Below are positions 29,734-49,765 of a DNA stretch of 64,000 nucleotides, in pieces. The stretch is from an uncultured Dehalococcoidia bacterium. Lineage in GTDB: Bacteria > Chloroflexota > Dehalococcoidia > Lucifugimonadales > GCA-2712585. Location of the stretch: positions 442,459 to 506,458 of the forward strand of contig OX638324.1 in assembly GCA_951812825.1 (NCBI GenBank), given 5' to 3'. The notes under the pieces were generated by a model. The model was not told the DNA's origin, searched no databases, and saw nothing but the letters and a program-made list of their open reading frames with translations. Numbering within the stretch: the first letter of the stretch is position 1; each line of letters opens with the position of its first letter. The translations under genes and the position numbers were made by a program.

Positions 29734-30133
29734 CCTTCCCCACGAAATCTCAAAAGATCTCGAGCGACACAGTAAACGTGCCGACATCCTTAACGAACTT
29801 GGACTTTGCGGGCGTCTTACTGGCGACGTCGTGACACTGAATTCGTCCCGCTTGCGCAGCTTGGCAAACTCCTCGCAAATGCGCGTCTCGTCAATCTTCA
29901 ACCCCCGCGGACAGGGGGCGGCCCTTATTGATCCGCTACCAATATCAGGTCCAACCGGTATGTTGGGATTGTGGAATAACGTGACAATTAGAAAATAATC
30001 AACGCGAAACACCCACTAGCCACATCATCGGAAACGAACTCAAAGAAATCTAACTAGACAAGGCCTTAGCCACCGAATGCCACGTCCAAAGCCCGATGGA
30101 TTCCGTGCCTGAGAGAAATGGGCCAACGTATCC

Positions 30134-31399
30134 TGAGGTGGACCCGGAAAATCGGACAGGTAGCCAAGTGAGAGTCCTGCTCCTGGACTAGAGGCAGTAG
30201 AAGCTGTCGAGAAGGAGTGGGAGATGAGAAAAGGAAGAAGGAAACACAGCGAAGCCTTCAAGGCGAAGGTGGCCCTGGAGGCGGTGAGAGGGGAGGAGAC
30301 GGTGGCGGAGTTGGCGGCCCGGTACGAAGTGCACCCGGGGCAGATACAGGCAGGGAAGCAGGCGCTGATAGCGCGGCTGTACCAGGAGATAGGGCAGCTT
30401 TAGGTGGAGCGGGAATTTCTTGGCGGAGAGGTCCGGTCCATGAGTAGGGAGCGACGGCGGAAGATGGTGGACCAGGAACATCACACACTGTCCATAGTGC
30501 GGCAGTGCGCCCTCCTTGGGGTGAGCAGATCCAGCCTCTACTATCGGCCCAAAGGTGCTTCTGCGAAGGAGTTGTCCCTGATGAAGGAGATGGGACCGTC
30601 AGTACCTTGTGACTCCCTTCTACGGATCGAGACGAATGAAGGCTGGACTGAACCGACAAGGTATCCGGGTGAGCCGCAAACGAGTACAGAGGTTGATGGG
30701 ACTCATGGGGTTACAGGCCCTCTACCGGCGCCCTCGCACCAGCCGACGGGCGAAGGGGGAGCGGATCTATCCCTATCTGTTGAGGGATATCAAGGTCACG
30801 AAGCCCAATCTGGTCTGGGTGGCGGACATCACCTACATCCCCATGGCTCGTGGCTTCCTATACCTGGCGGCGGTGATGGACTACTACAGCCGCTACGTGT
30901 TGGCTTGGCGATTGTCCAATACCCTGGAGGCCGACTTCTGCGTTGAGGCGTTGACGGATGCATTGGAGCAAGGGAAGCCACAGATGTTCAACACCCACCA
31001 GGGCAGTCAGTTCACAAGCTTCGAGTTCATCCGGGTCCTACAGCAGCGTGGAGTGAATATCAGCATGGACGGGAAGGGAAGGTACCAGGACAACATCCTG
31101 GCGGAGCGGCTGTGGAGGACGGTGAAGTACGAGGAGGTGCATCTGAAAGCCTATGCTAACGGCGCCATCGCCAGGAGGGAGCTTAGTGTCTACTTCCGCT
31201 TCTACACCAACCAGAGGCCCCATCAGGCCCTGGGCTACCGCACCCCCGCGGCGCTGTTCCACACAGACCGGACGGCGCCGGAGAAGGAATCAAAGGAGAT
31301 GAGGTGCTCTATACGACCGATGTTTGTATCATGTGCAGGAGCGACGGGACCCTTACTTAAGTCTACCCTCACTCTGTCCATCTAATGGGGTCTACCTCA
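30134..31399 (+). mobile_element. IS3-family insertion sequence, copy A (1266 bp)
   Basis: TG...CA termini. IRL is TGAGGTGGACCCGGAAAATCGGACAG. The reverse complement of IRR is TGAGGTAGACCCCATTAGATGGACAG. The internal transposase frames are orfA-like and rve/DDE-like. Confidence 0.85.
30224..31385 (+). pseudogene. IS3-family transposase (OrfA/OrfB), disrupted
   Basis: OrfA is MRKGRRKHSEAFKAKVALEAVRGEETVAELAARYEVHPGQIQAGKQALIARLYQEIGQL followed by TAG (30401-30403). The same frame continues VEREFL...HTLSIVRQCALLGVSRSSLYYRP...LMKEM. A +1 shift near 30590 is then needed to reach DRQYLVTPFYGSRRM...VWVADITYI...YSRYVLAW (integrase core). Confidence 0.7.
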
Positions 31400-38950: not shown

Positions 38951-39733
38951 CTACTGATCACTTCCCAGGGAAGCCATCTTACGGACCCGCCGTTCGATAA
39001 TCCCGAACAGAACCCAGGTGGCAAGTATATAGATGACGGTGATGGCCAGAGCCACCGCCCAGTGACCGGTGATCTGCCAAATGGAGTCATCAACTCTGGT
39101 CGATTCGTAGAGCGCAATCATTCCCCAGGAGGTGGGGAGGACTCTGGAGAGGGCCTCAAGCCCCACCGGAAAGATGTCGATTGGGTAGAGGAAGCCGCTC
39201 AAGACGATTCCGCCGAGGCTGAAACCGTTCAGAAAGCCGCCTCTTCCCCCCATCAACACCATTATGGGAGAAAAGATGAAGCAGCATACCATGACGCCTA
39301 TCGTAGTAATGACCAGGGAGATGAATACCAGAAGGACGTTTCCTAGTTCAGGAACACCGGAGTTAACGAGTACTCCTACGCCAAGCATCAGTCCGGCTCC
39401 AAGAATGCTCAGGAGCAGGAGTGAGAAGGACTTTCCCAAAGTGATCAGCGTGAGGGATGTCTTCGAAACGATGGCCAGATCCAGGGTGCCCATCAAGAGT
39501 TCACCGCTGACGGACCATCCAATTCTGAAGAAAGCCTGGTTCCAGACGATAAAGAGAAATACCCCTGCGAGCACATACGTTACGGTAGTGACGTCGGGCC
39601 CGCGACTGCCAATCCAGGAGAACATCAAGACGATTGGCAGAGATCCCAGCAGCAACGACACGAGGACGCTTGTGCTGAAAGCATTTTTCCATTCAGCCTT
39701 GGCTGCTGCTGTTAAAGCGTAGAGTATTCCCAT
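38951..39733 (-). CDS. ABC-2 type transporter permease (start codon abuts IS copy B)
   Basis: ORF 38951-39748. The ATG at 39731-39733 is the first base triplet outside the IS end (39734). The 5 extra N-terminal codons in the ORF track are IS sequence. Confidence 0.7.
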   Translation of the reverse strand: MGILYALTAAAKAEWKNAFSTSVLVSLLLGSLPIVLMFSWIGSRGPDVTTVTYVLAGVFLFIVWNQAFFRIGWSVSGELLMGTLDLAIVSKTSLTLITLGKSFSLLLLSILGAGLMLGVGVLVNSGVPELGNVLLVFISLVITTIGVMVCCFIFSPIMVLMGGRGGFLNGFSLGGIVLSGFLYPIDIFPVGLEALSRVLPTSWGMIALYESTRVDDSIWQITGHWAVALAITVIYILATWVLFGIIERRVRKMASLGSDQ

Positions 39734-40999
39734 TGAGGTAGACCCCATTAGATGGACAGAGTGAGGGTAGACTTAAGTAAGGGTCCCGTCGCTCCTGCAC
39801 ATGATACAAACATCGGTCGTATAGAGCACCTCATCTCCTTTGATTCCTTCTCCGGCGCCGTCCGGTCTGTGTGGAACAGCGCCGCGGGGGTGCGGTAGCC
39901 CAGGGCCTGATGGGGCCTCTGGTTGGTGTAGAAGCGGAAGTAGACACTAAGCTCCCTCCTGGCGATGGCGCCGTTAGCATAGGCTTTCAGATGCACCTCC
40001 TCGTACTTCACCGTCCTCCACAGCCGCTCCGCCAGGATGTTGTCCTGGTACCTTCCCTTCCCGTCCATGCTGATATTCACTCCACGCTGCTGTAGGACCC
40101 GGATGAACTCGAAGCTTGTGAACTGACTGCCCTGGTGGGTGTTGAACATCTGTGGCTTCCCTTGCTCCAATGCATCCGTCAACGCCTCAACGCAGAAGTC
40201 GGCCTCCAGGGTATTGGACAATCGCCAAGCCAACACGTAGCGGCTGTAGTAGTCCATCACCGCCGCCAGGTATAGGAAGCCACGAGCCATGGGGATGTAG
40301 GTGATGTCCGCCACCCAGACCAGATTGGGCTTCGTGACCTTGATATCCCTCAACAGATAGGGATAGATCCGCTCCCCCTTCGCCCGTCGGCTGGTGCGAG
40401 GGCGCCGGTAGAGGGCCTGTAACCCCATGAGTCCCATCAACCTCTGTACTCGTTTGCGGCTCACCCGGATACCTTGTCGGTTCAGTCCAGCCTTCATTCG
40501 TCTCGATCCGTAGAAGGGAGTCACAAGGTACTGACGGTCCCATCTCCTTCATCAGGGACAACTCCTTCGCAGAAGCACCTTTGGGCCGATAGTAGAGGCT
40601 GGATCTGCTCACCCCAAGGAGGGCGCACTGCCGCACTATGGACAGTGTGTGATGTTCCTGGTCCACCATCTTCCGCCGTCGCTCCCTACTCATGGACCGG
40701 ACCTCTCCGCCAAGAAATTCCCGCTCCACCTAAAGCTGCCCTATCTCCTGGTACAGCCGCGCTATCAGCGCCTGCTTCCCTGCCTGTATCTGCCCCGGGT
40801 GCACTTCGTACCGGGCCGCCAACTCCGCCACCGTCTCCTCCCCTCTCACCGCCTCCAGGGCCACCTTCGCCTTGAAGGCTTCGCTGTGTTTCCTTCTTCC
40901 TTTTCTCATCTCCCACTCCTTCTCGACAGCTTCTACTGCCTCTAGTCCAGGAGCAGGACTCTCACTTGGCTACCTGTCCGATTTTCCGGGTCCACCTCA
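39734..40999 (-). mobile_element. IS3-family insertion sequence, copy B (inverted, apparently identical to copy A)
   Basis: It mirrors 30134-31399. The 258-, 180-, 133-, 98-, 76- and 74-aa ORF-track translations are identical, and so is the shared part of a seventh pair that diverges only outside the IS end. Confidence 0.85.
39748..40909 (-). pseudogene. IS3-family transposase (OrfA/OrfB), same lesions as copy A
   Basis: Mirror of 30224-31385, with the same in-frame TAG and the same +1 frame break. Confidence 0.7.
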
Positions 41000-41353
41000 G
41001 GTTTCGACTGTCCAGCCGCCATTTTCCCGCAGAAGTCTTGTCGCTTCAACGCCGGTCCGGATAGGCAGCTGAAACTTGTCTACGTAGCTCTCGAGGTATT
41101 CAGCGAACTCGGATCGGGTGGGAAACAGGGACGTGTGAACTGGAAATGGCATTCCAGGGAGTGAACTGAGGTGTTTGCCGGTGTGCAATCTCGGACTGTC
41201 GTAGACTTGTCCCCACATCCATCCGGCATGCTCTCCCCGTTCGAGTACGACGTTGGAGATGCGCCGCGCGGCCAACTGCTGAGAGACTGCAAGCCCGCCT
41301 GGCCCTCCTCCCACGATGGCGATCCCGAAACGCTCAACCGGCAATTCGTACAA
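41000..41353 (-). pseudogene. Flavin-containing monooxygenase (FMO/CzcO-like) N-terminal fragment, truncated by IS copy B
   Basis: MYELPVERFGIAIVGGGPGGLAVSQQLAARR...HTGKHLSSLPGMPFP... is an FAD GxGxxG fold. The reading frame runs to the exact IS junction, and the IS terminal TGA supplies the stop. Confidence 0.75.
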
Positions 41354-41471
41354 ACTGCCTCACTCCACTCGCACGCCTCATCGCGCGGCCCCTGAGGTGA
41401 GGCCCGTAAGCAACCGGCGCCCGACAAAGCCCACTAACGCCATCGCCGCCTTCCGGGACTTGTTCTACAAC

Positions 41472-43133
41472 CTAGATGGTCAACTCTCTGATAATCTCCG
41501 CGCCGTGGTCGTCCCCGTCGGGCACACCCAGCAGGTTGTCCTTGAACTGGATGTCCCTCACCGCTTGAGCCAACTTAGCTTCGAGGCGCCTGGAAGACCA
41601 GCCCTTTGCCATTATCTGGACAAGAGGAGGATGAAGACGGCCGGACCGTCTCTTCTCCTCGTACTCGATATTCAGGCGGGCCAACTGGTCGTCGATGGCC
41701 CGTCCCAGGCGAATCGCCGACTCATCAGCCACCGGGAGTCGTTTGAGCTCCAATTGCAAGTTGTAACGGGAGGTCTCAGGGTGTCCCACAGCACGATAAT
41801 ACTCTATGCCAATTCCCACCGAACTCTGCGCAGCTTCTACAGCCTGTATCAGCTGTGATACGTGGAGCTTTTCCCCCTCCAGGTTCACCATGTCCCGGCC
41901 CTTTCGCATGAACTCGAGCAGGGGCGTCCTGCCATGGAACCCCGCCACTCTTACTATGTCGTTGATGTCGTACCTGTAGAGGCCATTGGGAGAGGTGAGC
42001 ACAATATAGTAGCTTTCACCGTTTTCCAATTGGCTCACGGTCAGGACGTGAGGGCGGGTACTCTCTATGTCGCCCTCCGGAATAAATTCGTAGAAGTTGG
42101 CGGCAACGGCCAGGATTCCTCTGCAACCCTCGTCTTCAGTAGGGAGGGTGACATAGGCCTCGCTGGAAAGGTATCCGATGTCTCGGAACGGCGTCTCGGT
42201 GCGAAACCAAGGTCTTAGCCTGTCCACCGTCGACCCGACGCTGCCGCCCTTCCAACAGCCCACCAAAGCCAGGTCAGGCCAGTATTCTTTGGGCCGCAGC
42301 GAACCCGTTCCGGCCACGATGCTTTCCAGTTCCCGCGCCCGCTTAGGATTTGGTTTCAGGAATGGGCTGATTTGCCGCCGCACCTCCGAAGATATGTCGA
42401 AATCTTTCGAGACGGCACCGTCGTGAATGTCCTCATATAACCGGTCATGGTGGTTGTCCGCAGTCATTGCCAGCCGCAGTATCGTGCTGGGATTGGGCGT
42501 CGCAATCAAGGAAAGCCTTTGTTCTATGGCAAACCGCATTATGGCATAGTACTTCGCTTCGAAATCCTTGATAGCAAACACAGGGTACGGAACGGCGTAA
42601 CGACGCCGCAAGACCCAAGACGCATTCTTGTATATGTAGCCTGAAGCTGATCCGAAGGGAATGCCACCGTCTGTGCATCCTTCCACGGCAGGGCTGACGA
42701 TTACCAATGCTTTGTGATCGAGAGTCTTGGGATGGTCCACCAGGCACCGGTAAAGCCAGAGTCGCGACAGGCTCTTGGCCGTATCTCCGACGGACCGGTT
42801 TACTGGAATGAACTTCGGCTGGCCGGCTGACCCGCTCGTCAATGCAAACAGGTATGGGTCTTCGCTGGTCAGGACGCGCCGTTCACCCTCCTTGAGCCGA
42901 TCCACCCATGGACGAAAGTCCTCATAGTCCCCGACAGGCACACCGTCTCGGTAGTCCTGTACCGAGTTCATCCTCGAAAATCCATGCTGCCGACCATATG
43001 CCGTATCCTGGTTGGATTTCAGGATACGTTGAAGGAGGTCGCGTTGGACTTCCTCTGGATGCTTCGTCGTGTGCTCAAATCTTCGCCAAGACCAGCGCCC
43101 CTTGAGAGCCAACAATTGTGAGACCGCAGACAT
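41472..43133 (-). CDS. GH3-family protein (ANL-superfamily acyl-acid amido synthetase-like)
   Basis: 553 aa: FEHTTKHPEEVQRDLLQRIL...NSVQDYRDGVPVGDYEDFRPWVDR...LFALTSGSAGQPKFIPV, the conserved bacterial GH3 N-terminus with its adenylation P-loop-like TSGS..G.PK. Confidence 0.75.
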   Translation of the reverse strand: MSAVSQLLALKGRWSWRRFEHTTKHPEEVQRDLLQRILKSNQDTAYGRQHGFSRMNSVQDYRDGVPVGDYEDFRPWVDRLKEGERRVLTSEDPYLFALTSGSAGQPKFIPVNRSVGDTAKSLSRLWLYRCLVDHPKTLDHKALVIVSPAVEGCTDGGIPFGSASGYIYKNASWVLRRRYAVPYPVFAIKDFEAKYYAIMRFAIEQRLSLIATPNPSTILRLAMTADNHHDRLYEDIHDGAVSKDFDISSEVRRQISPFLKPNPKRARELESIVAGTGSLRPKEYWPDLALVGCWKGGSVGSTVDRLRPWFRTETPFRDIGYLSSEAYVTLPTEDEGCRGILAVAANFYEFIPEGDIESTRPHVLTVSQLENGESYYIVLTSPNGLYRYDINDIVRVAGFHGRTPLLEFMRKGRDMVNLEGEKLHVSQLIQAVEAAQSSVGIGIEYYRAVGHPETSRYNLQLELKRLPVADESAIRLGRAIDDQLARLNIEYEEKRRSGRLHPPLVQIMAKGWSSRRLEAKLAQAVRDIQFKDNLLGVPDGDDHGAEIIRELTI

Positions 43134-43135
43134 GA

Positions 43136-45004
43136 TTAACCCTGGACACCCACTCTTACGATGTCATCGGCAAGCCTTTCCAGGGCCTCGTCGTCGACTT
43201 TAACCCCGAGACCTTCGCCTAGGAGAAGGTCCCCTCTTCCCTCGTAACCGAACATAACAGGCTCCGGGGAGATATCTTCGCTCAACAGGTGAGTCCCAAA
43301 CGAACCCTCTACATACTTGACCCCCGGCAGGTGGGCGGCAAGATGCCGACCGGCCGCCGAAAGCAAAGATGTCTCCCCCACCTGGGCTCCCACCTGCACT
43401 TGAATGCCCGCGTCTAATCCGACTTTTGCTATATGGTTTGACGCCAGGAGTCCCCCGCACTTCGAGACCCGAATGTTGAATGCATCGCAAGCTTCCATTC
43501 GGATGAGGCTGTCGGCGTCATTTAGTGTGACCAGGGATTCGTCTGCAATCACTGTGACGCCGGTTTCGTGACGGACCCGAAGCATTCCTTCCAAATCAGA
43601 GGCGGGAACCGGTTGCTCGACCGCTCTGATGTCATATGCTCTTAACCGTTTCAGCGCCGAGACGGCTTCGGAGGCGGTCCAGGCGCCGTTGGCGTCCACC
43701 CTTATCTCTACCCGGTCGCCTGCGGCTTTTCTAACAGCTTCCAGGCGTTGCATATCATCATCGAGGCCGACCTTCACCTTCAGGGTCCTAAACTTAGCCC
43801 GTACATAGCGTGCTGCCGTTTCTCCTGCTGTTTCCGGGTCCGTGGCGTCTATTACGCCTGTGTAAACCACGTGCCCTCGAGCCGGAGCCAGCCAATTAGA
43901 GATGGATTCGCCAGAGCGTTTGAACGTCCAGTCCAGTAGGGCCAACTCTAACGCACACAAGGTCGCATTCCAGGCGACCACATCGGAGCTGGACGCATTG
44001 AGCGACGCACAGCCCTCTATGAAAGACTGTATCTGTTCCAGGGCCTCTGCCCCCGACTCAAGGTTCAGTTTCATGGCCTTAGGTCCCAGCTTGGACCGGA
44101 GCATCTCAACCATCCTGGGAACGTCTTCACCTGTTACGTACGGCCTGGGCAACGCCTCTCCATACCCCGTTAGCCCATCACTTCCCATTAGTCGCACAAT
44201 CACCGAGTCGCTGTTTGACCGGCTCTTCTTGGAGTGGACGAAGGTCTGGGTAAAGGGTATGTGCAGAGGTAGAATTGCTAAAGTGTCAATCCCGCTGGGC
44301 TCAGGCTTCAGTGTCGAATGCGAGCCGCGTGGGAAATACCGGTTCAAAACAACGTTCTCCGCAAACGTCTTCCTTGCGATTCGCTCAAATTCATCAGGTT
44401 GGAATCTGAAATATGAGACATAGCTTAGGATTGTCTGCTTACCTTCTTCTGCGTGCTTGATATCCACTTCCCCATGCAACTTAAACCATTGCACCGCCCC
44501 AGACGAAAGACCGTAGTGGCCGGTCATTGCATTGGCCATACTGTCGCTGACTCTGGAAAGAAAGAACTCAAAGGCGACGGTTTCCAGTAATATTGACAAT
44601 CCCAAATCCTTCAAAGTCCCGTACGGGACTTTGGATGAGCTAAAACGCCGTCGAACCTCGTCTGCTTCAGCGGAGAGCCGAAGTATGTCCTGTTGGGAAA
44701 ACCCCAGCCCTCGGGCTAGGTCGATAAGCATATCTGGATGGGATTTCTCGCTCTCCTCCAATCCCATCTCTTCCAGCAAGTTCTCTTTCACCAAGTTCGA
44801 AGGGCCCCGCGGAACTATGGAATACAGAAACGATAGAATCTGGACTGAGTTAAGGTGCGTGACGATAAAACTCCGGAAAAATGCTCGCACCTCGTCCGGG
44901 ATCATCTCGCCGGACAACAGCGCCTGAACCCGTTTGTCAGCCAGAGCTTCAGACGTGGTTCGTTCGATGAACTCTTTGACATTATCTTCAACCGACATGC
45001 CCAC
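43136..45004 (-). CDS. Fusion protein: N-terminal heme-oxygenase-like (iron-containing redox enzyme family) domain plus C-terminal enolase-superfamily MLE-subgroup domain
   Basis: N-terminal ~230 aa carry LLEEMGLEESEKSHPDML and KLHGEVDIKHAEEG (HO-like/PF14518-type pattern). The C-terminal domain carries LKVKVG (KxK), RVDANGAW, VEQPV, IADES and NIRVSKCGG. The stop lies 2 nt before the GH3 ATG. Confidence 0.7.
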   Translation of the reverse strand: MGMSVEDNVKEFIERTTSEALADKRVQALLSGEMIPDEVRAFFRSFIVTHLNSVQILSFLYSIVPRGPSNLVKENLLEEMGLEESEKSHPDMLIDLARGLGFSQQDILRLSAEADEVRRRFSSSKVPYGTLKDLGLSILLETVAFEFFLSRVSDSMANAMTGHYGLSSGAVQWFKLHGEVDIKHAEEGKQTILSYVSYFRFQPDEFERIARKTFAENVVLNRYFPRGSHSTLKPEPSGIDTLAILPLHIPFTQTFVHSKKSRSNSDSVIVRLMGSDGLTGYGEALPRPYVTGEDVPRMVEMLRSKLGPKAMKLNLESGAEALEQIQSFIEGCASLNASSSDVVAWNATLCALELALLDWTFKRSGESISNWLAPARGHVVYTGVIDATDPETAGETAARYVRAKFRTLKVKVGLDDDMQRLEAVRKAAGDRVEIRVDANGAWTASEAVSALKRLRAYDIRAVEQPVPASDLEGMLRVRHETGVTVIADESLVTLNDADSLIRMEACDAFNIRVSKCGGLLASNHIAKVGLDAGIQVQVGAQVGETSLLSAAGRHLAAHLPGVKYVEGSFGTHLLSEDISPEPVMFGYEGRGDLLLGEGLGVKVDDEALERLADDIVRVGVQG

Positions 45005-45093
45005 CCCTTCGAAAGTTGTCGTTGCGGCTGGATGCCCTGGTGGCGTTTAGGGCTTCATCCTGATGGAAGTATACACCCCTTTTCTAGGTTACC

Positions 45094-45801
45094 TTAGGAC
45101 CTGGACGCGGCGTCAGGGTCACCCATTCGCCTGTTTCCGGGGCGGGGCCTTCCGACAGAATAAACGTGAGGCGGTCCGGCTCTCCCTTCATTCATACGCA
45201 CCCCCAGGTGAACACCGCCCAGGGCTGCCAAGTCATTGAGGTTTGACTCAATCTCGCACCGTGCGGCAGGCAGGTCGTCGAATGACTCCGGGCAAGGTAG
45301 TATCTTGACAAGATGCTTGAGATTGGCCTGATCACCGAGGAATGAGCCGCGCCGAGCGTTACGAAGTATCTCGGCGGTCTTGAGTATACCAGAGAACCGA
45401 TCGACAAACACCCGCCAATCGTCTACCGGCTCACGGAACCAGCCATCCCACTGAAACCCGTTGTCTCACCCCAAGACAGAACCGCCGAAAATAGGCTCGC
45501 ACCCCTCGGGCCGAGCGTAATCGTTTGACATAAGCCTACCGGCCAGGCCGTACCAGGTCGGGTTGTGTGAGGCGGGTAGCCCATCACTAGGACAGAGTGC
45601 CAGGGCTCCCCAGCGTGTGGCATAGGTTTGTTGATCGCCAGGAACTATATACCAGTCATCGCCACATACATTAGTCCACCCCGGGCGTGACTGGTTAAGA
45701 CAATTATCAGGTCTTGGTTTTGAGGTCAACCACCTCCTTAGGGGCCGCAAGCCTTTAATGGGGAGAAAGCCTTTTTTGATTGCTGGTTCCCTCGATGACA
45801 A
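45094..45801 (-). pseudogene. Hypothetical ORF interrupted by one in-frame TGA (45466-45468)
   Basis: ORF-track entries 45466-45801 and 45094-45411 are in the same frame. My translation across the gap reads ...IFGGSVLG*DNGFQWDGWFREPVDDWRVFVDRF... No family recognised. Confidence 0.3.
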
Positions 45802-45960
45802 TCTGGTAGCTGGAGTTGGCCAGCCGGTCGAGGGCGCTGTTGCCGAGGGTGGGATCGTCGAAGAGACTGAGCCATTCCTCCACGGCCCTATTGGATGTGA
45901 TGACGAAACTGGAGACCCGGTGACGGCTGATTATGAGTTGGTACAGATCAGCCGACTGCT
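45755..45960 (-). pseudogene. istB: IS21-family IstB helper ATPase, C-terminal fragment
   Basis: ...ADLYQLIISRHRVSSFVITSNRAVEEWLSLFDDPTLGNSALDRLANSSYQIVIEG matches the IstB C-terminus (LF.LI..RYE..S.I.TSN....EW...F.D..L..A.LDRL.H.S..I.I.G). The N-terminal two-thirds are absent. Confidence 0.7.
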
Positions 45961-45966
45961 GGGATG

Positions 45967-47232
45967 TAAGGCGATGGAGGCCATCATCGAGTCGGTGGAC
46001 GAATTCTACAGCGAAAATCTGGCCCAAGAGGTTATGAAAGGGTTGAGGGAGGCAGCGTCAAGAGGCTTTTGGATGGCTCCCTATGTGCCTTTCGGATATC
46101 GGCGAGTGTATGTGCGTGACGGTGCGAAAAAGAGGCCAAGGCTTGAGGTGGACGAGGATAAGGCCGCCGTGGTCCGGCGCATTTTCAGGTTGACCCTTCA
46201 GGGGAGAAGCCCAGTTGAAATCATCAGGATTCTTAACGATGAAGGGATAGCTAGCCCCAGAGAAAAACTCTGGCTCAAGACCACCGTGCAAAAGGTCTTG
46301 GTCAATGAGTCCTACACAGGGACCCTCATTTGGGGCCGCTCATCCAAGGATGGGACTCCGCACGTGCGAGTGAACGGTGCCTTTCCGGCACTCGTCACCA
46401 TGCGTGATTTCCGTCAGGTAGCAGAAGTGCTACAATCTCGTGCACCCAATAGGATACATCCCAGAAGGGCTACTAGCCCCTATCTCCTCAGCGGTCTTGC
46501 CAAATGCGAGCCCTGCCGGAAGGCACTCACCGCCGCAGAGGCGAAGAGCGGAAAATACAGCTATTACGTATGCCAGTCTTTATTGAAGAGAGGACGAAGG
46601 TCCTGCAACACTCCGAGGCTTAATGCCAAGTACTTTGAAGGCTTAATCGTCGGAAGCATACGAGACAACATTCTTACTGAGTCCAACATCACAGACTTGG
46701 TAAGGATAGCGAACGAGGAGATGGACGATGTGGCCAAGGATCAGCGGAAGGCACTCAGAACCATTCGGAGAGAGCTAGGAGACGTCAAACGCCGATTGGC
46801 GAGAATCTGGGAGGTGATAGAGACATCAAAATCGACCTCGACGATGCCGCAGAACGGTTGGCGGAACTCCGGGAAAGAAAGAAGAAACTCGAGGTTGCTG
46901 AAGAGGAGACCGAAAACAATCTGAAGCAAAGACGCGAAGCGTTGGAAAAGATGAAATCGGTAGCGACTTTCGCCAAAGAAATGAGGGAGTACCTTAAGAC
47001 AAGCGAACTGACTGAGACGCGGTCCTTCATCAGGTCCTTCGTGAACGATATAGAGGTGCGGCGCGGGAGGGCCATAATCCGCTACAGCATACCGACACCG
47101 GATGACAGCCCCATAGAGGTAGACGACACCATGCTCCTGGCACTAGGGAACGAAGTTCGCAGTATTGAACCCTTTGGTGGCGCATACGGGGTTCGAACCC
47201 GTGATCTCCGCCTTGAGAGGGCGGTGTCCTAG
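45967..47232 (+). pseudogene. Large serine recombinase, 5'-truncated and frameshifted
   Basis: It starts mid-domain (AIIESVDEFYSENLAQEVMKGL). The Recombinase domain (PFGYRRV...AAVVRRIF...GRSPVEIIRILNDEGI...W...VQKVLVNESYTGT) and zinc ribbon (LAKCEPCRKAL...YSYYVCQ) are present. The coiled-coil tail continues in another frame from ~46820 (ORF 46858-47232). Confidence 0.75.
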
Positions 47233-47251
47233 TCCACTAGACGAATGCGCC
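47175..47251 (-). tRNA. tRNA-Glu (anticodon CUC), CCA encoded
   Basis: The reverse complement is GGCGCATTCGTCTAGTGGACTAGGACACCGCCCTCTCAAGGCGGAGATCACGGGTTCGAACCCCGTATGCGCCACCA. Its architecture parallels E. coli tRNA-Glu and the anticodon loop is CTCTCAA. Confidence 0.9.
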
Positions 47252-47329: not shown

Positions 47330-47403
47330 TGCCGAGTGGTGTAGTGGTAGCACTCGTGACTCTGGATCACGCAACCCTGGTTCGAATCCAGGCTCGGCAG
47401 CCA
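47330..47403 (+). tRNA. tRNA-Gln (anticodon CUG), CCA encoded; putative ICE attachment site
   Basis: TGCCGAGTGGTGTAGTGGTAGCACTCGTGACTCTGGATCACGCAACCCTGGTTCGAATCCAGGCTCGGCAGCCA, with a U1-A72 pair and anticodon loop CTCTGGA. Confidence 0.9.
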
Positions 47404-47568: not shown

Positions 47569-48723
47569 ATGGCAAGACTAACAGCAACAAAAGTAAAGTC
47601 GCTGAAGAGGCCCGGACGCTACGGAGATGGCGCCGGACTCTATTTGGTAGTGAGACCCAGCGGCTCAAAAGCTTGGGTACAACGCATCGTAATTGACGGC
47701 AAGCGCAAGGATATTGGTCTAGGTGGTTTCCCGGCTATCGGCCTCAAAGATGCCCGAGCAAAGGCTTTGGCCAACCGCAACAATGTTGCGACCGGCGGCA
47801 ATCCAGTGGCGGCAAAGCGCAAGGCGACACTGCCTACTTTTGACGAAATGTCCATGAAGTACCTTGCCACCAACGCTCCGCGCTGGAAGAATACAAAAAC
47901 CAGCCAGAATTTCAAGCAGACCTTAGAGCGATACGCCCTTCCCATGCTGGGAGGAATGCGAATAGACAGAATTCAACGCAGCCATGTCCTGGACGTCCTT
48001 GACCCGATATGGACGTCAAAGCCGTCTATGGCTCGCAAGCTAAGACAGAGGCTACGGGCTATCTTCGCTTACGCAATGGCTCACCACGGAGAAATCGTCT
48101 ACAATCCCGCTGGCGATGTTATCAACGCGGCCCTTCCTCCTGTCCCTTCCGTAAAAGCGCATTTTCGGGCCTTGCCCTATGAAGAAGTGGAAGAGGCCCT
48201 AAAAATCGTCGGTGATTCCCGCGCGTCAATTGTGGCAAGGTCCTGCCTCAGGTTCCTGGTTCTCACTGCAGTGCGCTCAGGCGAAGCTAGGAACGCGACA
48301 TGGAATGAAATTGATCTCAACGCTGCTACCTGGACAATTCCTGGCGAGCGCATGAAAGCAGGCCGCGAGCATCGAGTACCTCTATCTCAGCAAGCCCTAG
48401 AAGTGCTTCAGTTGGTAAGAATATTGGATGACAATAGCGGACTAGTTTTTCCTAGCCCGAAGCGACTTGGACGCCCGCTTTCCGATATGACTCTAACCAA
48501 GCTGCTCAGAGACAATGGCCTCTCCGAACGCTCGACAGTCCATGGATTCAGGACCAGCTTCAAGACGTGGTGTATGGAACGAACTAACGTAGGCTGGGCA
48601 GTCGGTGAGTCCGCGCTGGCTCATTCGCTAGGCAATAGTACCGAGCAAGCCTATGCTCGTTCGGATCTGTTTGAAAAGCGGCGGGCCTTGATGCAAGCTT
48701 GGGCAGATTACTTGCTCGGCTGA
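47569..48723 (+). CDS. int: Tyrosine-type site-specific integrase, P4-like (DUF4102 N-terminus)
   Basis: MARLTATKVKSLKRPGRYGDGAGLYLVVRPSGSKAWVQRIVIDGKR.DIGLG is the P4-integrase N-terminus. Catalytic R (LTAVRSGEAR), HxxR (HGFRTSFKTW) and Y (EQAYARSD) are present. Confidence 0.9.
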   Translation: MARLTATKVKSLKRPGRYGDGAGLYLVVRPSGSKAWVQRIVIDGKRKDIGLGGFPAIGLKDARAKALANRNNVATGGNPVAAKRKATLPTFDEMSMKYLATNAPRWKNTKTSQNFKQTLERYALPMLGGMRIDRIQRSHVLDVLDPIWTSKPSMARKLRQRLRAIFAYAMAHHGEIVYNPAGDVINAALPPVPSVKAHFRALPYEEVEEALKIVGDSRASIVARSCLRFLVLTAVRSGEARNATWNEIDLNAATWTIPGERMKAGREHRVPLSQQALEVLQLVRILDDNSGLVFPSPKRLGRPLSDMTLTKLLRDNGLSERSTVHGFRTSFKTWCMERTNVGWAVGESALAHSLGNSTEQAYARSDLFEKRRALMQAWADYLLG

Positions 48724-48757: not shown

Positions 48758-48991
48758 CTAGCCAACCTGACTCCCCGCTACTGGTCGCGATTCGATCCAG
48801 GCCATGATGTCACTTGCCTTCCACCTCACGGCGCCGGGACCAATCTTCACAGGCCGTGGAAGATCACTTATTTCCATTAACCGATAGATTGAAGATCGAC
48901 TCAATCCGGTAATTTTCTCGACCTCTCGCCGTCTCAATAGTCTGTCTTGCAAAACTCCCTCCTCCTCATTGGTTAAGTTATTGCAGCGCAT
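48758..48991 (-). CDS. alpA: AlpA-family HTH regulator / excisionase-like protein
   Basis: LLRRREVEKITGLSRSSIYRLMEISDLPRPVKIGPGAVRWKASDIMAWIESRP. The start is uncertain. A TTG at 48952 preceded by GGAGGAGGGAG is a good alternative. Confidence 0.8.
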   Translation of the reverse strand: MRCNNLTNEEEGVLQDRLLRRREVEKITGLSRSSIYRLMEISDLPRPVKIGPGAVRWKASDIMAWIESRPVAGSQVG

Positions 48992-49765
48992 AGTTTGGCT
49001 TTCGGAAACAATCACTACACGGACCCCACAATTGGCAGAGGCTAGCCCGGATGGAAGAAAACATCTCTCCGAGACCGGGCGATGCCTGGGTTGGAGATGG
49101 AGCAAGTTCCCGTCTTCTGTACGCTGTGGATTTTGCCTTTGGTTCCATGCCTGAATTCTGAGGAGTCGGGTGATGAATTGTCATGGCTTGTGAGGGGGCC
49201 TCGCGTGAGAGGCCCCTCACCCGGTGTTTGCATTTATCGGCCTGATTTACGGATATTCCCGTACACCGTAATTGCAAGCTTGGATTAAGAGCCGTTTCTG
49301 TGCCAATTCGCTCCAGAATAGGACAATAATTGGTCCTCCAAGAGCGGTCGTTGACAGCACTGTGTGGTAAGGGATCATTCCCCCGTTTAGGGTCATTTTG
49401 GACGAGCTATCATCGTTAACTTGGCGTCAACGAGAGCAGGATTTGCTCCAAGGGAGTAATCGATTCAAGGGACAAGGCCTTGCTCGGAGACTTGGATGCC
49501 CCTACGGGATATAGACTATTAGGCAGGCCAACTCATGAGGGGCATGTCAAGAACGAGACCCGTGCGCAGGTGACGGGAATAAGGGGACAGCAATAATGGT
49601 TGACGCGAATCACCAATGGCGGAGAAGGCCACGTAGGTTGAGATTCCGTGTCCTAAACCGCCCGTAGGGGAGTTGGGCGAATGCCATTGCGGTGAATTGC
49701 GCCGCGGTTACTCTCGTGCCGTGGCTCTCCTGGAGACAGTTGTTGCAACGTAGGTTGCGGCGAAT

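Follow-up and report, generated by a model that had tools for sequence, protein, structure and literature searches.

A heme-oxygenase-like/enolase-superfamily fusion protein paired with a GH3 ligase in an uncultured Dehalococcoidia bacterium: a candidate module for making and tailoring N-acyl amino acids

The stretch of 64,000 nucleotides considered here (assembly GCA_951812825.1, contig OX638324.1, positions 442,459 to 506,458; hereafter the window) comes from an uncultured Dehalococcoidia bacterium and carries on its minus strand a gene in which a heme-oxygenase-like dimetal oxidase (HDO) domain is joined to an enolase-superfamily domain of the MLE subgroup, immediately followed by the gene of a GH3-family ligase. 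Fusion and ligase are conserved together far beyond this genome, and analysis of their domains and gene context suggests that they may constitute one module making and tailoring an N-acyl amino acid; the product would most probably be a lipoamino acid of lipid-like character, a reading which we hold with middling confidence. The genes and domains concerned are the following.

43136..44998, minus strand: HDO-enolase fusion gene, 620 aa from the ATG at 44998 (622 aa from the GTG at 45004)
44321..44998, minus strand: HDO domain of the fusion, residues ~3-228
43139..44275, minus strand: MLE-subgroup enolase domain (capping domain and TIM barrel), residues ~244-622
41472..43133, minus strand: GH3-family acyl acid amido synthetase, 553 aa, with Pfam domains GH3, GH3_M and GH3_C
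40997..41353, minus strand: remnant of a class-B flavin monooxygenase (FMO) gene, an open reading frame (ORF) of 118 aa, Pfam Pyr_redox_3 and FMO-like
41000..45114, minus strand: block in common with a locus of a Dehalococcoidia metagenome-assembled genome (L001), 88.5% DNA identity over 4118 bp by blastn

The original prediction, made from the letters of the window, had described a single ORF joining a heme-oxygenase-like to an MLE-subgroup domain, with a GH3 gene beginning 2 nt past its stop codon and, 118 nt further downstream, an FMO gene cut short by an insertion sequence (IS). This layout is borne out by coordinates, Pfam assignments and comparison with L001, and the joining of the two domains by Pfam and an alignment of 44 sequences. 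The motifs quoted at that time—EEMG..SHP, HGEVDIKHAEEG, KVKVG, RVDANGAW, VEQP, IADES and SKCGG—are all present, most of them being invariant or at least 90% conserved. The start of translation is likely the ATG at 44998, giving 620 aa as in the homologues, since this codon is preceded by the ribosome-binding site GAAGGGG and the length of 620 aa is uniform among close relatives. Search of 5.8 billion proteins returned 613 matches to the fusion, and nearly all of the best 120 of them are ~620 aa long and contain both Pfam domains, their identities lying between 100% and 44%; over 100 homologues of full length share the HDO-enolase architecture, some of them encoded on contigs up to 4.5 Mb. Their records bear generic names (“iron-containing redox enzyme family protein”, “enolase C-terminal domain-like protein”, “muconate cycloisomerase”) and list Dehalococcoidia/Chloroflexota, Zixibacteria and Methylomirabilales among the hosts. 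An independent metagenome contig (L093) repeats the order of integrase, recombinase, fusion and GH3 found in the window and ends soon after GH3, as a contig would be expected to do at a repeated IS; since the order is independently reproduced, the gene arrangement of the window is real. Pairwise dN/dS values between the window, L001 and a third locus, L090, lie at 0.15-0.19 in the fusion gene and at 0.14-0.19 in the GH3 gene, which points to purifying selection acting on both genes. In the AlphaFold2 (AF2) model of the full-length fusion (pLDDT 88.9, pTM 0.84) just three linker residues fall below 50, which suggests that the two domains are held in a defined arrangement. Thus, as the original prediction assumed, the fusion is genuine and no artefact, considering the number of homologues, the independent assembly and the low dN/dS. 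That an assembly or annotation error produced it, or that mobile elements merely brought unrelated neighbours together, might be thought of because the surroundings of the block include an IS, a recombinase fragment, tRNA genes and an integrase; confronted with the homologues on long contigs, the independent assembly, the pTM obtained for the two-domain protein, the low dN/dS and an adjacency kept across phyla, this explanation has a negligible probability.

In the N-terminal part of the fusion, residues 40-196 match Pfam PF14518 (Haem_oxygenas_2, “iron-containing redox enzyme”; E 2.7e-16), and the AF2 model of residues 1-232 is an all-helical bundle (pLDDT 90.9, pTM 0.89), for which Foldseek comparison with the PDB gave CADD/CT610 as the best match (TM 0.71-0.76, E 1e-7), followed by PqqC, FlcD, HrmI, RohS, UndA and BesC. 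The predicted structure is therefore the heme-oxygenase-like, all-helical fold of the HDO superfamily. Residues E79, H89, E141 (or E146), H177, D181 and H184 are invariant or at least 90% conserved in the 44-sequence alignment and align with E81, H88, E142, H174, D178 and H181 of CADD, including the H-x3-D-x2-H helix, so that a 3-His/3-carboxylate set of putative metal ligands is kept at the level of sequence. Fold and ligands, on which the initial assignment depended, both hold up, and the domain is predicted to belong to the HDO superfamily. Fold and ligand pattern are common to CADD, UndA, BesC, HrmI, RohS, FlcD and SznF, whereas identity of the window domain to any solved HDO is at most 17%. 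The chemistry of CADD, a self-sacrificing p-aminobenzoate (pABA) synthase, is defined by its two sacrificial residues, Tyr27 and Lys152 (PMC13108848). In the fusion, Lys152 aligns to Met156, which belongs to a variable non-Lys column, no conserved Tyr is found near residue 26, and the match to the NCBIfam model TIGR04305, at 29 bits, falls far short of the cutoff of 200; a CADD-type pABA synthase was rejected because the equivalents of Tyr27 and Lys152 are not conserved. The HDO-domain family is small and separate, counting only 110 representatives at E<=1e-3 among 1.8 billion, many of them stand-alone proteins of 220-240 aa; it occurs fused to an enolase-family protein or, in all five split loci examined, encoded directly upstream of one. 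A few full-length fusion homologues, such as P0099 and P0112, lack the HDO metal ligands (the H-x3-D-x2-H element is replaced, for example, by RHARPELPDAGEA) and keep the catalytic residues of the enolase part, so their HDO domain may be degenerate. Another fusion architecture is represented by P0154 (572 aa), in which the HDO-family domain is C-terminal (358-563) and stands behind an unidentified N-terminal part of ~350 aa.

The C-terminal part matches Pfam MR_MLE_C (PF13378) at residues 395-607 (E 1.2e-47) and, weakly, MR_MLE_N at 255-370, and its AF2 secondary structure fits a capping domain followed by a TIM barrel. Both catalytic sets of the MLE subgroup are found at the expected places: the Mg2+ ligands at the ends of strands 3, 4 and 5 are represented by D437, E463 and D488, and the acid/base residues by the K-x-K motif of strand 2 (K409, K411) and the Lys of strand 6 (K515). 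All of them are invariant across 52 relatives apart from K411, which is Lys in 51 of the 52 and Arg in the remaining one. The best sequence matches in the PDB are the dipeptide epimerase 3jva, the N-succinyl-Arg/Lys racemase-type protein 2p88 and YkfB 1jpm (E 1e-39 to 1e-36). In dipeptide epimerases, a D-x-D motif after strand 8 binds the free alpha-ammonium group of the dipeptide. In the fusion it is E566-G567-S568 that aligns with the “DLD” of the dipeptide epimerase 3rit; E566 never varies, G567 and S568 hardly do so in HDO-linked loci, and the last position is S, G, A or C in stand-alone enolases, while at the equivalent post-strand-8 position 2p88 from B. cereus has E-L-T. Identity as a dipeptide epimerase was rejected since E-G-S replaces D-x-D, and the corresponding NCBIfam cutoffs are missed as well (NF041118, 103 versus 500; NF011708, 65 versus 343). 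The replacement fits a candidate substrate that is N-acylated and devoid of free amine, and an N-acyl amino acid is proposed because the nearest solved enolase relatives act on N-acylated amino acids or dipeptides. Scores fall below the cutoffs also for muconate cycloisomerase (TIGR02534, 147 versus 335), DgcA (121 versus 400) and two models of o-succinylbenzoate synthase (OSBS; 100 versus 288 and 95 versus 201).

The ligase matches the N-terminal, middle and C-terminal Pfam domains of GH3 (E 6e-71, 3e-21 and 4e-8), finds its best PDB matches in JAR1 and GH3.6/GH3.12 (E ~1e-29), and contains the nucleotide-binding motifs TSGSAGQPK, YLSSE and YRYDIND, which align to those of JAR1; the complete three-domain, three-motif signature of the family is thereby present. 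Architecture and motifs are shared with the plant enzymes JAR1, GH3.6 and GH3.12, from which it is separated by low sequence similarity and by belonging to a bacterial subfamily that is inherited together with an enolase-family partner. Bacterial GH3 proteins are numerous, and of these OlsH alone has been characterised: it ligates a fatty acid to ornithine with ATP, giving N-acyl-ornithine, and its authors (2025) leave the roles of other bacterial GH3 proteins open (PMC12493201).

Gene neighbourhoods were compared in 93 related loci by mapping five home-made hidden Markov models of domains onto six-frame translations. Thirty loci have an HDO, be it fused or split, with ~350 nt or more of sequence on its downstream side; in 29 of them the HDO-enolase unit is followed directly by GH3, and the lone exception, L004, is situated beside prophage and transposase genes. 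Identity to the window GH3 falls in step with fusion identity from clade to clade (91%, ~62%, 45-50% and 31-36%), and because one tracks the other the pair is co-inherited. HDO and enolase are split into adjacent co-directional genes, followed by GH3, in L022, L024 and L089, and the short contigs L087 and L088 display the same split as far as they extend; such forms are the result of natural fission or fusion. More distant, stand-alone enolase homologues (32-40% identity) keep all catalytic residues as well as E283, R287 and E566-G567 and very often adjoin a GH3 of the same subfamily. In this second architecture GH3 is preceded by a membrane FA_hydroxylase, to which it is fused in L074, L076 and L080, and also by a small protein designated “sm”, fused in turn to FA_hydroxylase in L063. 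The best curated match of this FA_hydroxylase is OlsE, the ornithine-lipid head-group hydroxylase (3e-57, full length, below cutoff). Since both HDO loci and FA_hydroxylase loci pair enolase with GH3, the oxygenase appears interchangeable, and the module as judged from its genes always unites GH3 and an enolase-family enzyme with a dimetal oxygenase, for which two unrelated folds occur. It is because fusion, fission and replacement by a non-homologous oxygenase all recur with GH3 that we consider the components functionally linked.

FMO follows GH3, in its intact form of 388 aa, in L001 (87%), L090 (80%) and L091 (66%), where “sm” lies just past it on the opposite strand, and does not follow GH3 in L002, L007 and L092 (61-62%), L003 and L005. 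The conserved core is thus the fusion plus GH3, and FMO is limited to the Dehalococcoidia sub-clade of the window (three further genomes). Of the three-gene unit originally proposed, recurrence of the trio in three other genomes speaks for it, while the unit that is conserved is the pair, and relatives possess a fourth, membrane component that is missing from the window; likewise, the accessory character deduced from the IS and mobile debris suits the island context of the window and not most other genomes, which hold the pair among ordinary chromosomal genes. The “sm” family consists of proteins of ~150 aa with apparently four transmembrane segments (four-TM), found in 20 loci (e.g., L012 6286-6729; L066 4989-5468; L001 14764-15297, minus strand) and recognizable by the motif LF..RV..Q...LP....W.SG...Y...P..FH.VLA; it accompanies GH3-enolase modules in either architecture, is covered by no model of Pfam or NCBIfam, and its records say hypothetical only. 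In most loci of the 45-49% clade a protein of ~1130 aa combining major facilitator superfamily (MFS), PlsC-type acyltransferase and AMP-binding parts is encoded directly upstream of the fusion, and its cluster covers 16 loci in all (including L021 4563-7964). This protein resembles a fused LplT-Aas lysophospholipid recycling system. Other recurrent neighbours are alpha/beta-hydrolases and an LpxL-like acyltransferase together with a CDP-alcohol phosphatidyltransferase. In L089 (1-6306, Logan SRR22387835) genes for a methyltransferase, two ferritin-like di-iron proteins (weak FA_desaturase_2/AurF-like matches) and an acyl carrier protein (ACP) precede stand-alone HDO, stand-alone enolase and GH3, all of them co-directional and overlapping or nearly abutting, and this locus may be the richest version of the pathway.

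In the scheme that can be built upon these domain identities, catalytic residues and linkage, what is inferred is the class of substrate, the sequence of the steps and that the product is a lipid. GH3 would adenylate a carboxylic acid, probably a fatty acid, and attach it to an amino acid at the alpha-amino group, as OlsH does. The enolase domain would bind the free carboxylate of the resulting N-acyl amino acid via Mg2+ and remove the C-alpha proton with its Lys pair, the outcome being either L-to-D epimerisation, comparable with N-acyl/N-succinyl racemases, or, if a beta-hydroxyl is present as it would be after beta-hydroxylation, beta-elimination (dehydration). The fused HDO would employ its dimetal centre and O2 for the oxidation of the same molecule, in either head group or acyl chain. 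In the lineage of the window, FMO would add further oxygenation and the small four-TM protein would be part of the set, both lost in the window itself owing to IS insertion. Whereas the original prediction spoke of an amino-acid-derived small molecule in general, with which the functional linkage of the genes agrees, context favours a lipid-like, fatty-acyl N-acyl amino acid over such a generic compound, because an OlsE-like hydroxylase, an Aas-like protein, acyltransferases, ACP and the four-TM “sm” recur as neighbours. The probable fatty-acyl nature of the product rests on this gene context, which is weakest in the window's own clade.

Several observations weigh against a lipoamino acid product. 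Within Dehalococcoidia clades, including that of the window, no acyltransferase or lipid gene is found beside the module, its neighbours being ZnuA, PNPase and peptide ABC transporter genes; no membrane segment was detected in the fusion and GH3 proteins; the match of the ligase to the OlsH equivalog model NF052613 is partial and scores 91 bits against a cutoff of 620; the enolase domain reaches the cutoff of no curated equivalog (muconate cycloisomerase, DgcA, Ala-Glu epimerase (AEE), OSBS); CADD, the nearest HDO structure, acts on no lipid; and neighbours were clustered by simple ORF calling and single-linkage BLAST from metagenomic loci of unknown redundancy. The same sequence of conjugation, deprotonation and oxidation might instead be performed on a soluble non-lipid acid, for example an aromatic or short-chain one, to yield a small natural product or signal, which is in essence what the original prediction had proposed. 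Plant GH3 enzymes, the best PDB matches of the ligase, mostly use small acids (jasmonate, indole-3-acetate (IAA), benzoates), all three window proteins look soluble, the Dehalococcoidia loci are without nearby lipid genes, and L089, which has a methyltransferase and additional di-iron enzymes, resembles a small cluster of biosynthetic genes. Nevertheless, a membrane OlsE-like hydroxylase fused to GH3, a four-TM partner and Aas-like and acyltransferase neighbours are hard to explain with soluble substrates, and we judge this alternative to be the less probable of the two.

Degradation is another function to be weighed: the module might be catabolic and act on recalcitrant carboxylic acids, either cyclic or aromatic. 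Its oxygenases would then hydroxylate or open the substrate, the enolase domain, similar to muconate cycloisomerase, would lactonise it and GH3 would activate a carboxylate. It would suit Dehalococcoidia with many FMO and enolase paralogues, which are among the hosts, and muconate/chloromuconate cycloisomerase is indeed the top NCBIfam match of the enolase domain and the name given by JGI to one member; the 147 bits obtained are, however, far under the cutoff of 335, GH3 proteins consume ATP to synthesise amides and are not known to take part in catabolism, and what surrounds the module is ACP, acyltransferases and OlsE-like hydroxylase rather than ring-cleavage or beta-ketoadipate genes, all of which makes catabolism unlikely. 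Still less credit can be given to a folate-related route, where a CADD-like domain would produce p-aminobenzoate and a GH3.12-like ligase would couple it to glutamate. CADD is closest to the N-terminal domain in both sequence and structure, TIGR04305 is weakly matched, and plant GH3.12 conjugates 4-substituted benzoates to Glu, but identity to CADD is just 15-17%, no Tyr occurs in the 20-30 region, Met156 occupies the place of Lys152, TIGR04305 remains at 29 bits of the required 200, and both the enolase domain and the OlsE-like replacement would be left without a role. Returning to the lipoamino acid, one may tentatively go further and suppose a widespread but hitherto unrecognised pathway. 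Its products would be oxygenated lipoamino acids of a new class, whose amino-acid head group is D-configured or dehydro and which could function as membrane lipids or as signals; the pathway would be spread over Dehalococcoidia, Binatia-like soil bacteria, Zixibacteria and lineages from the sea or from sediment. On this extended supposition, which we do not expect to hold in full, the soluble HDO and the membrane OlsE-like hydroxylase would be interchangeable, and the fusion would couple oxidation with C-alpha chemistry on a lipid-linked amino acid.

The remaining features of the surroundings characterize the setting in which the module is found in the window.

39734..41001, minus strand: IS3-type insertion sequence, 1268 bp, with rve, HTH_21 and rve_3 domains, truncating FMO
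40187-40729 and 39748-40524: IS3-type transposase ORFs
45758-46924, plus strand: truncated serine recombinase (Pfam), its catalytic N-terminal domain gone
47175-47251, minus strand: tRNA-Glu(CTC) (ARAGORN), divergent from tRNA-Gln
47330-47403, plus strand: tRNA-Gln(CTG) (ARAGORN)
47569-48723, plus strand: tyrosine integrase (Pfam)

Homology with L001 stops at window position 41000, precisely at the IS boundary, and the flanks on either side of the common block are unrelated. The FMO ORF runs on into the IS and retains the FAD-binding part (~120 residues) of the enzyme, so that from the FAD and NADPH domains of a class-B FMO only the part with the FAD motif is kept. When the intact 388-aa FMO of L001 was used as a tblastn query, only its residues 1-123 were matched, ending at 41000, and no counterpart of the sequence beyond residue 123 was found anywhere in the 64 kb. 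Truncation of FMO by the IS is thus confirmed. A second copy of the IS, inverted and 100% identical, is present at 30132-31399; inversion between the two copies was considered as the cause of truncation and rejected, because the missing part of FMO is absent from the window. No terminal inverted repeats of the IS were detected by repeat search. Between the two copies lies a segment of ~8.3 kb with a gene of the PNP_UDP_1 phosphorylase family and two paralogous ABC-2 exporter sets, either set consisting of two permeases and a DrrA-like ATPase; the layout resembles a composite transposon. The listed ATG of the first permease (38951-39748) falls within the last bases of the IS (edge at 39734); its true start is probably further downstream, or its 5′ end was changed by the insertion. 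An AlpA/HTH_17-type ORF (48758-49105), called on the matching contig L093, is also part of the genomic-island layout. PADLOC, applied in view of the island context, gave no defence-system match in the window, and the scan for promoters and terminators produced nothing above shuffled background. Both “sm” and any FA_hydroxylase are absent from the window. What is found here is accordingly the core of fusion and GH3 only, both intact, with FMO destroyed and the membrane partner absent, located in an island-like, IS-rich region by tRNA genes, while elsewhere the module mostly stands amid ordinary chromosomal genes.

The original prediction knew of no description of the fusion or the trio, and in the library that we searched there is likewise no paper on an HDO fused to an enolase, on GH3 paired with an enolase or on the trio; the HDO-enolase architecture is not mentioned in a 2026 review of HDOs. 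We know of no enolase fusion among HDOs and of no MLE-subgroup enzyme with a dedicated ATP-dependent N-acylating partner. The module offers a second, sharply delimited bacterial GH3 subfamily, whose partners are fixed: one is an enzyme of the enolase family, the other a dimetal oxygenase. It would give a new reaction context to the intensively studied HDO and enolase superfamilies, and it is valuable as an enzyme-discovery target. If the product is a lipoamino acid, the diversity of membrane lipids or signals would be extended into poorly cultured phyla; if the extended supposition above proves right, the coupled reactions of the fusion would be new chemistry for both the HDO and enolase superfamilies, and bacterial GH3 would gain a second function.

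All parts of the module come from superfamilies already described; among known systems the closest is the synthesis of aminolipids by OlsH/OlsE. In it, N-acyl-ornithine is O-acylated by OlsI, an alpha/beta-hydrolase (PMC12493201, PMC12971839), and in other bacteria the ornithine head group is hydroxylated by the di-iron enzyme OlsE (PMC12971839). As with OlsH of Singulisphaera acidiphila and its partners, a bacterial GH3 is found beside or coupled with a di-iron oxygenase, and loci related to the window go as far as carrying an OlsE-like hydroxylase fused to GH3. Candidates for O-acylation, alpha/beta-hydrolases or PlsC-type proteins, are available in related loci and lacking beside the module in the window clade, with no OlsI-type gene beside GH3 in the window itself, and the GH3 of the module is only distantly related to OlsH. 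To our knowledge, no ornithine-lipid pathway involves an enolase-family partner or an HDO. For the enolase part, the proper counterpart is the pathway of N-succinylamino acid racemase (NSAR)/N-acylamino acid racemase, since enolase-superfamily racemases are known to act on amino acids only once these are N-acylated; the NSAR pathway reportedly proceeds by acylation, racemisation and deacylation. Acylation in the module would be ATP-dependent and due to GH3, not to a GNAT protein with succinyl-CoA; no deacylase partner accompanies it, none of the curated cutoffs is reached, and the racemase-like domain is fused to an oxygenase. Common to both would be N-acylation preceding abstraction of the alpha-proton, for which the Lys pair and the Mg2+ ligands are intact in the fusion.

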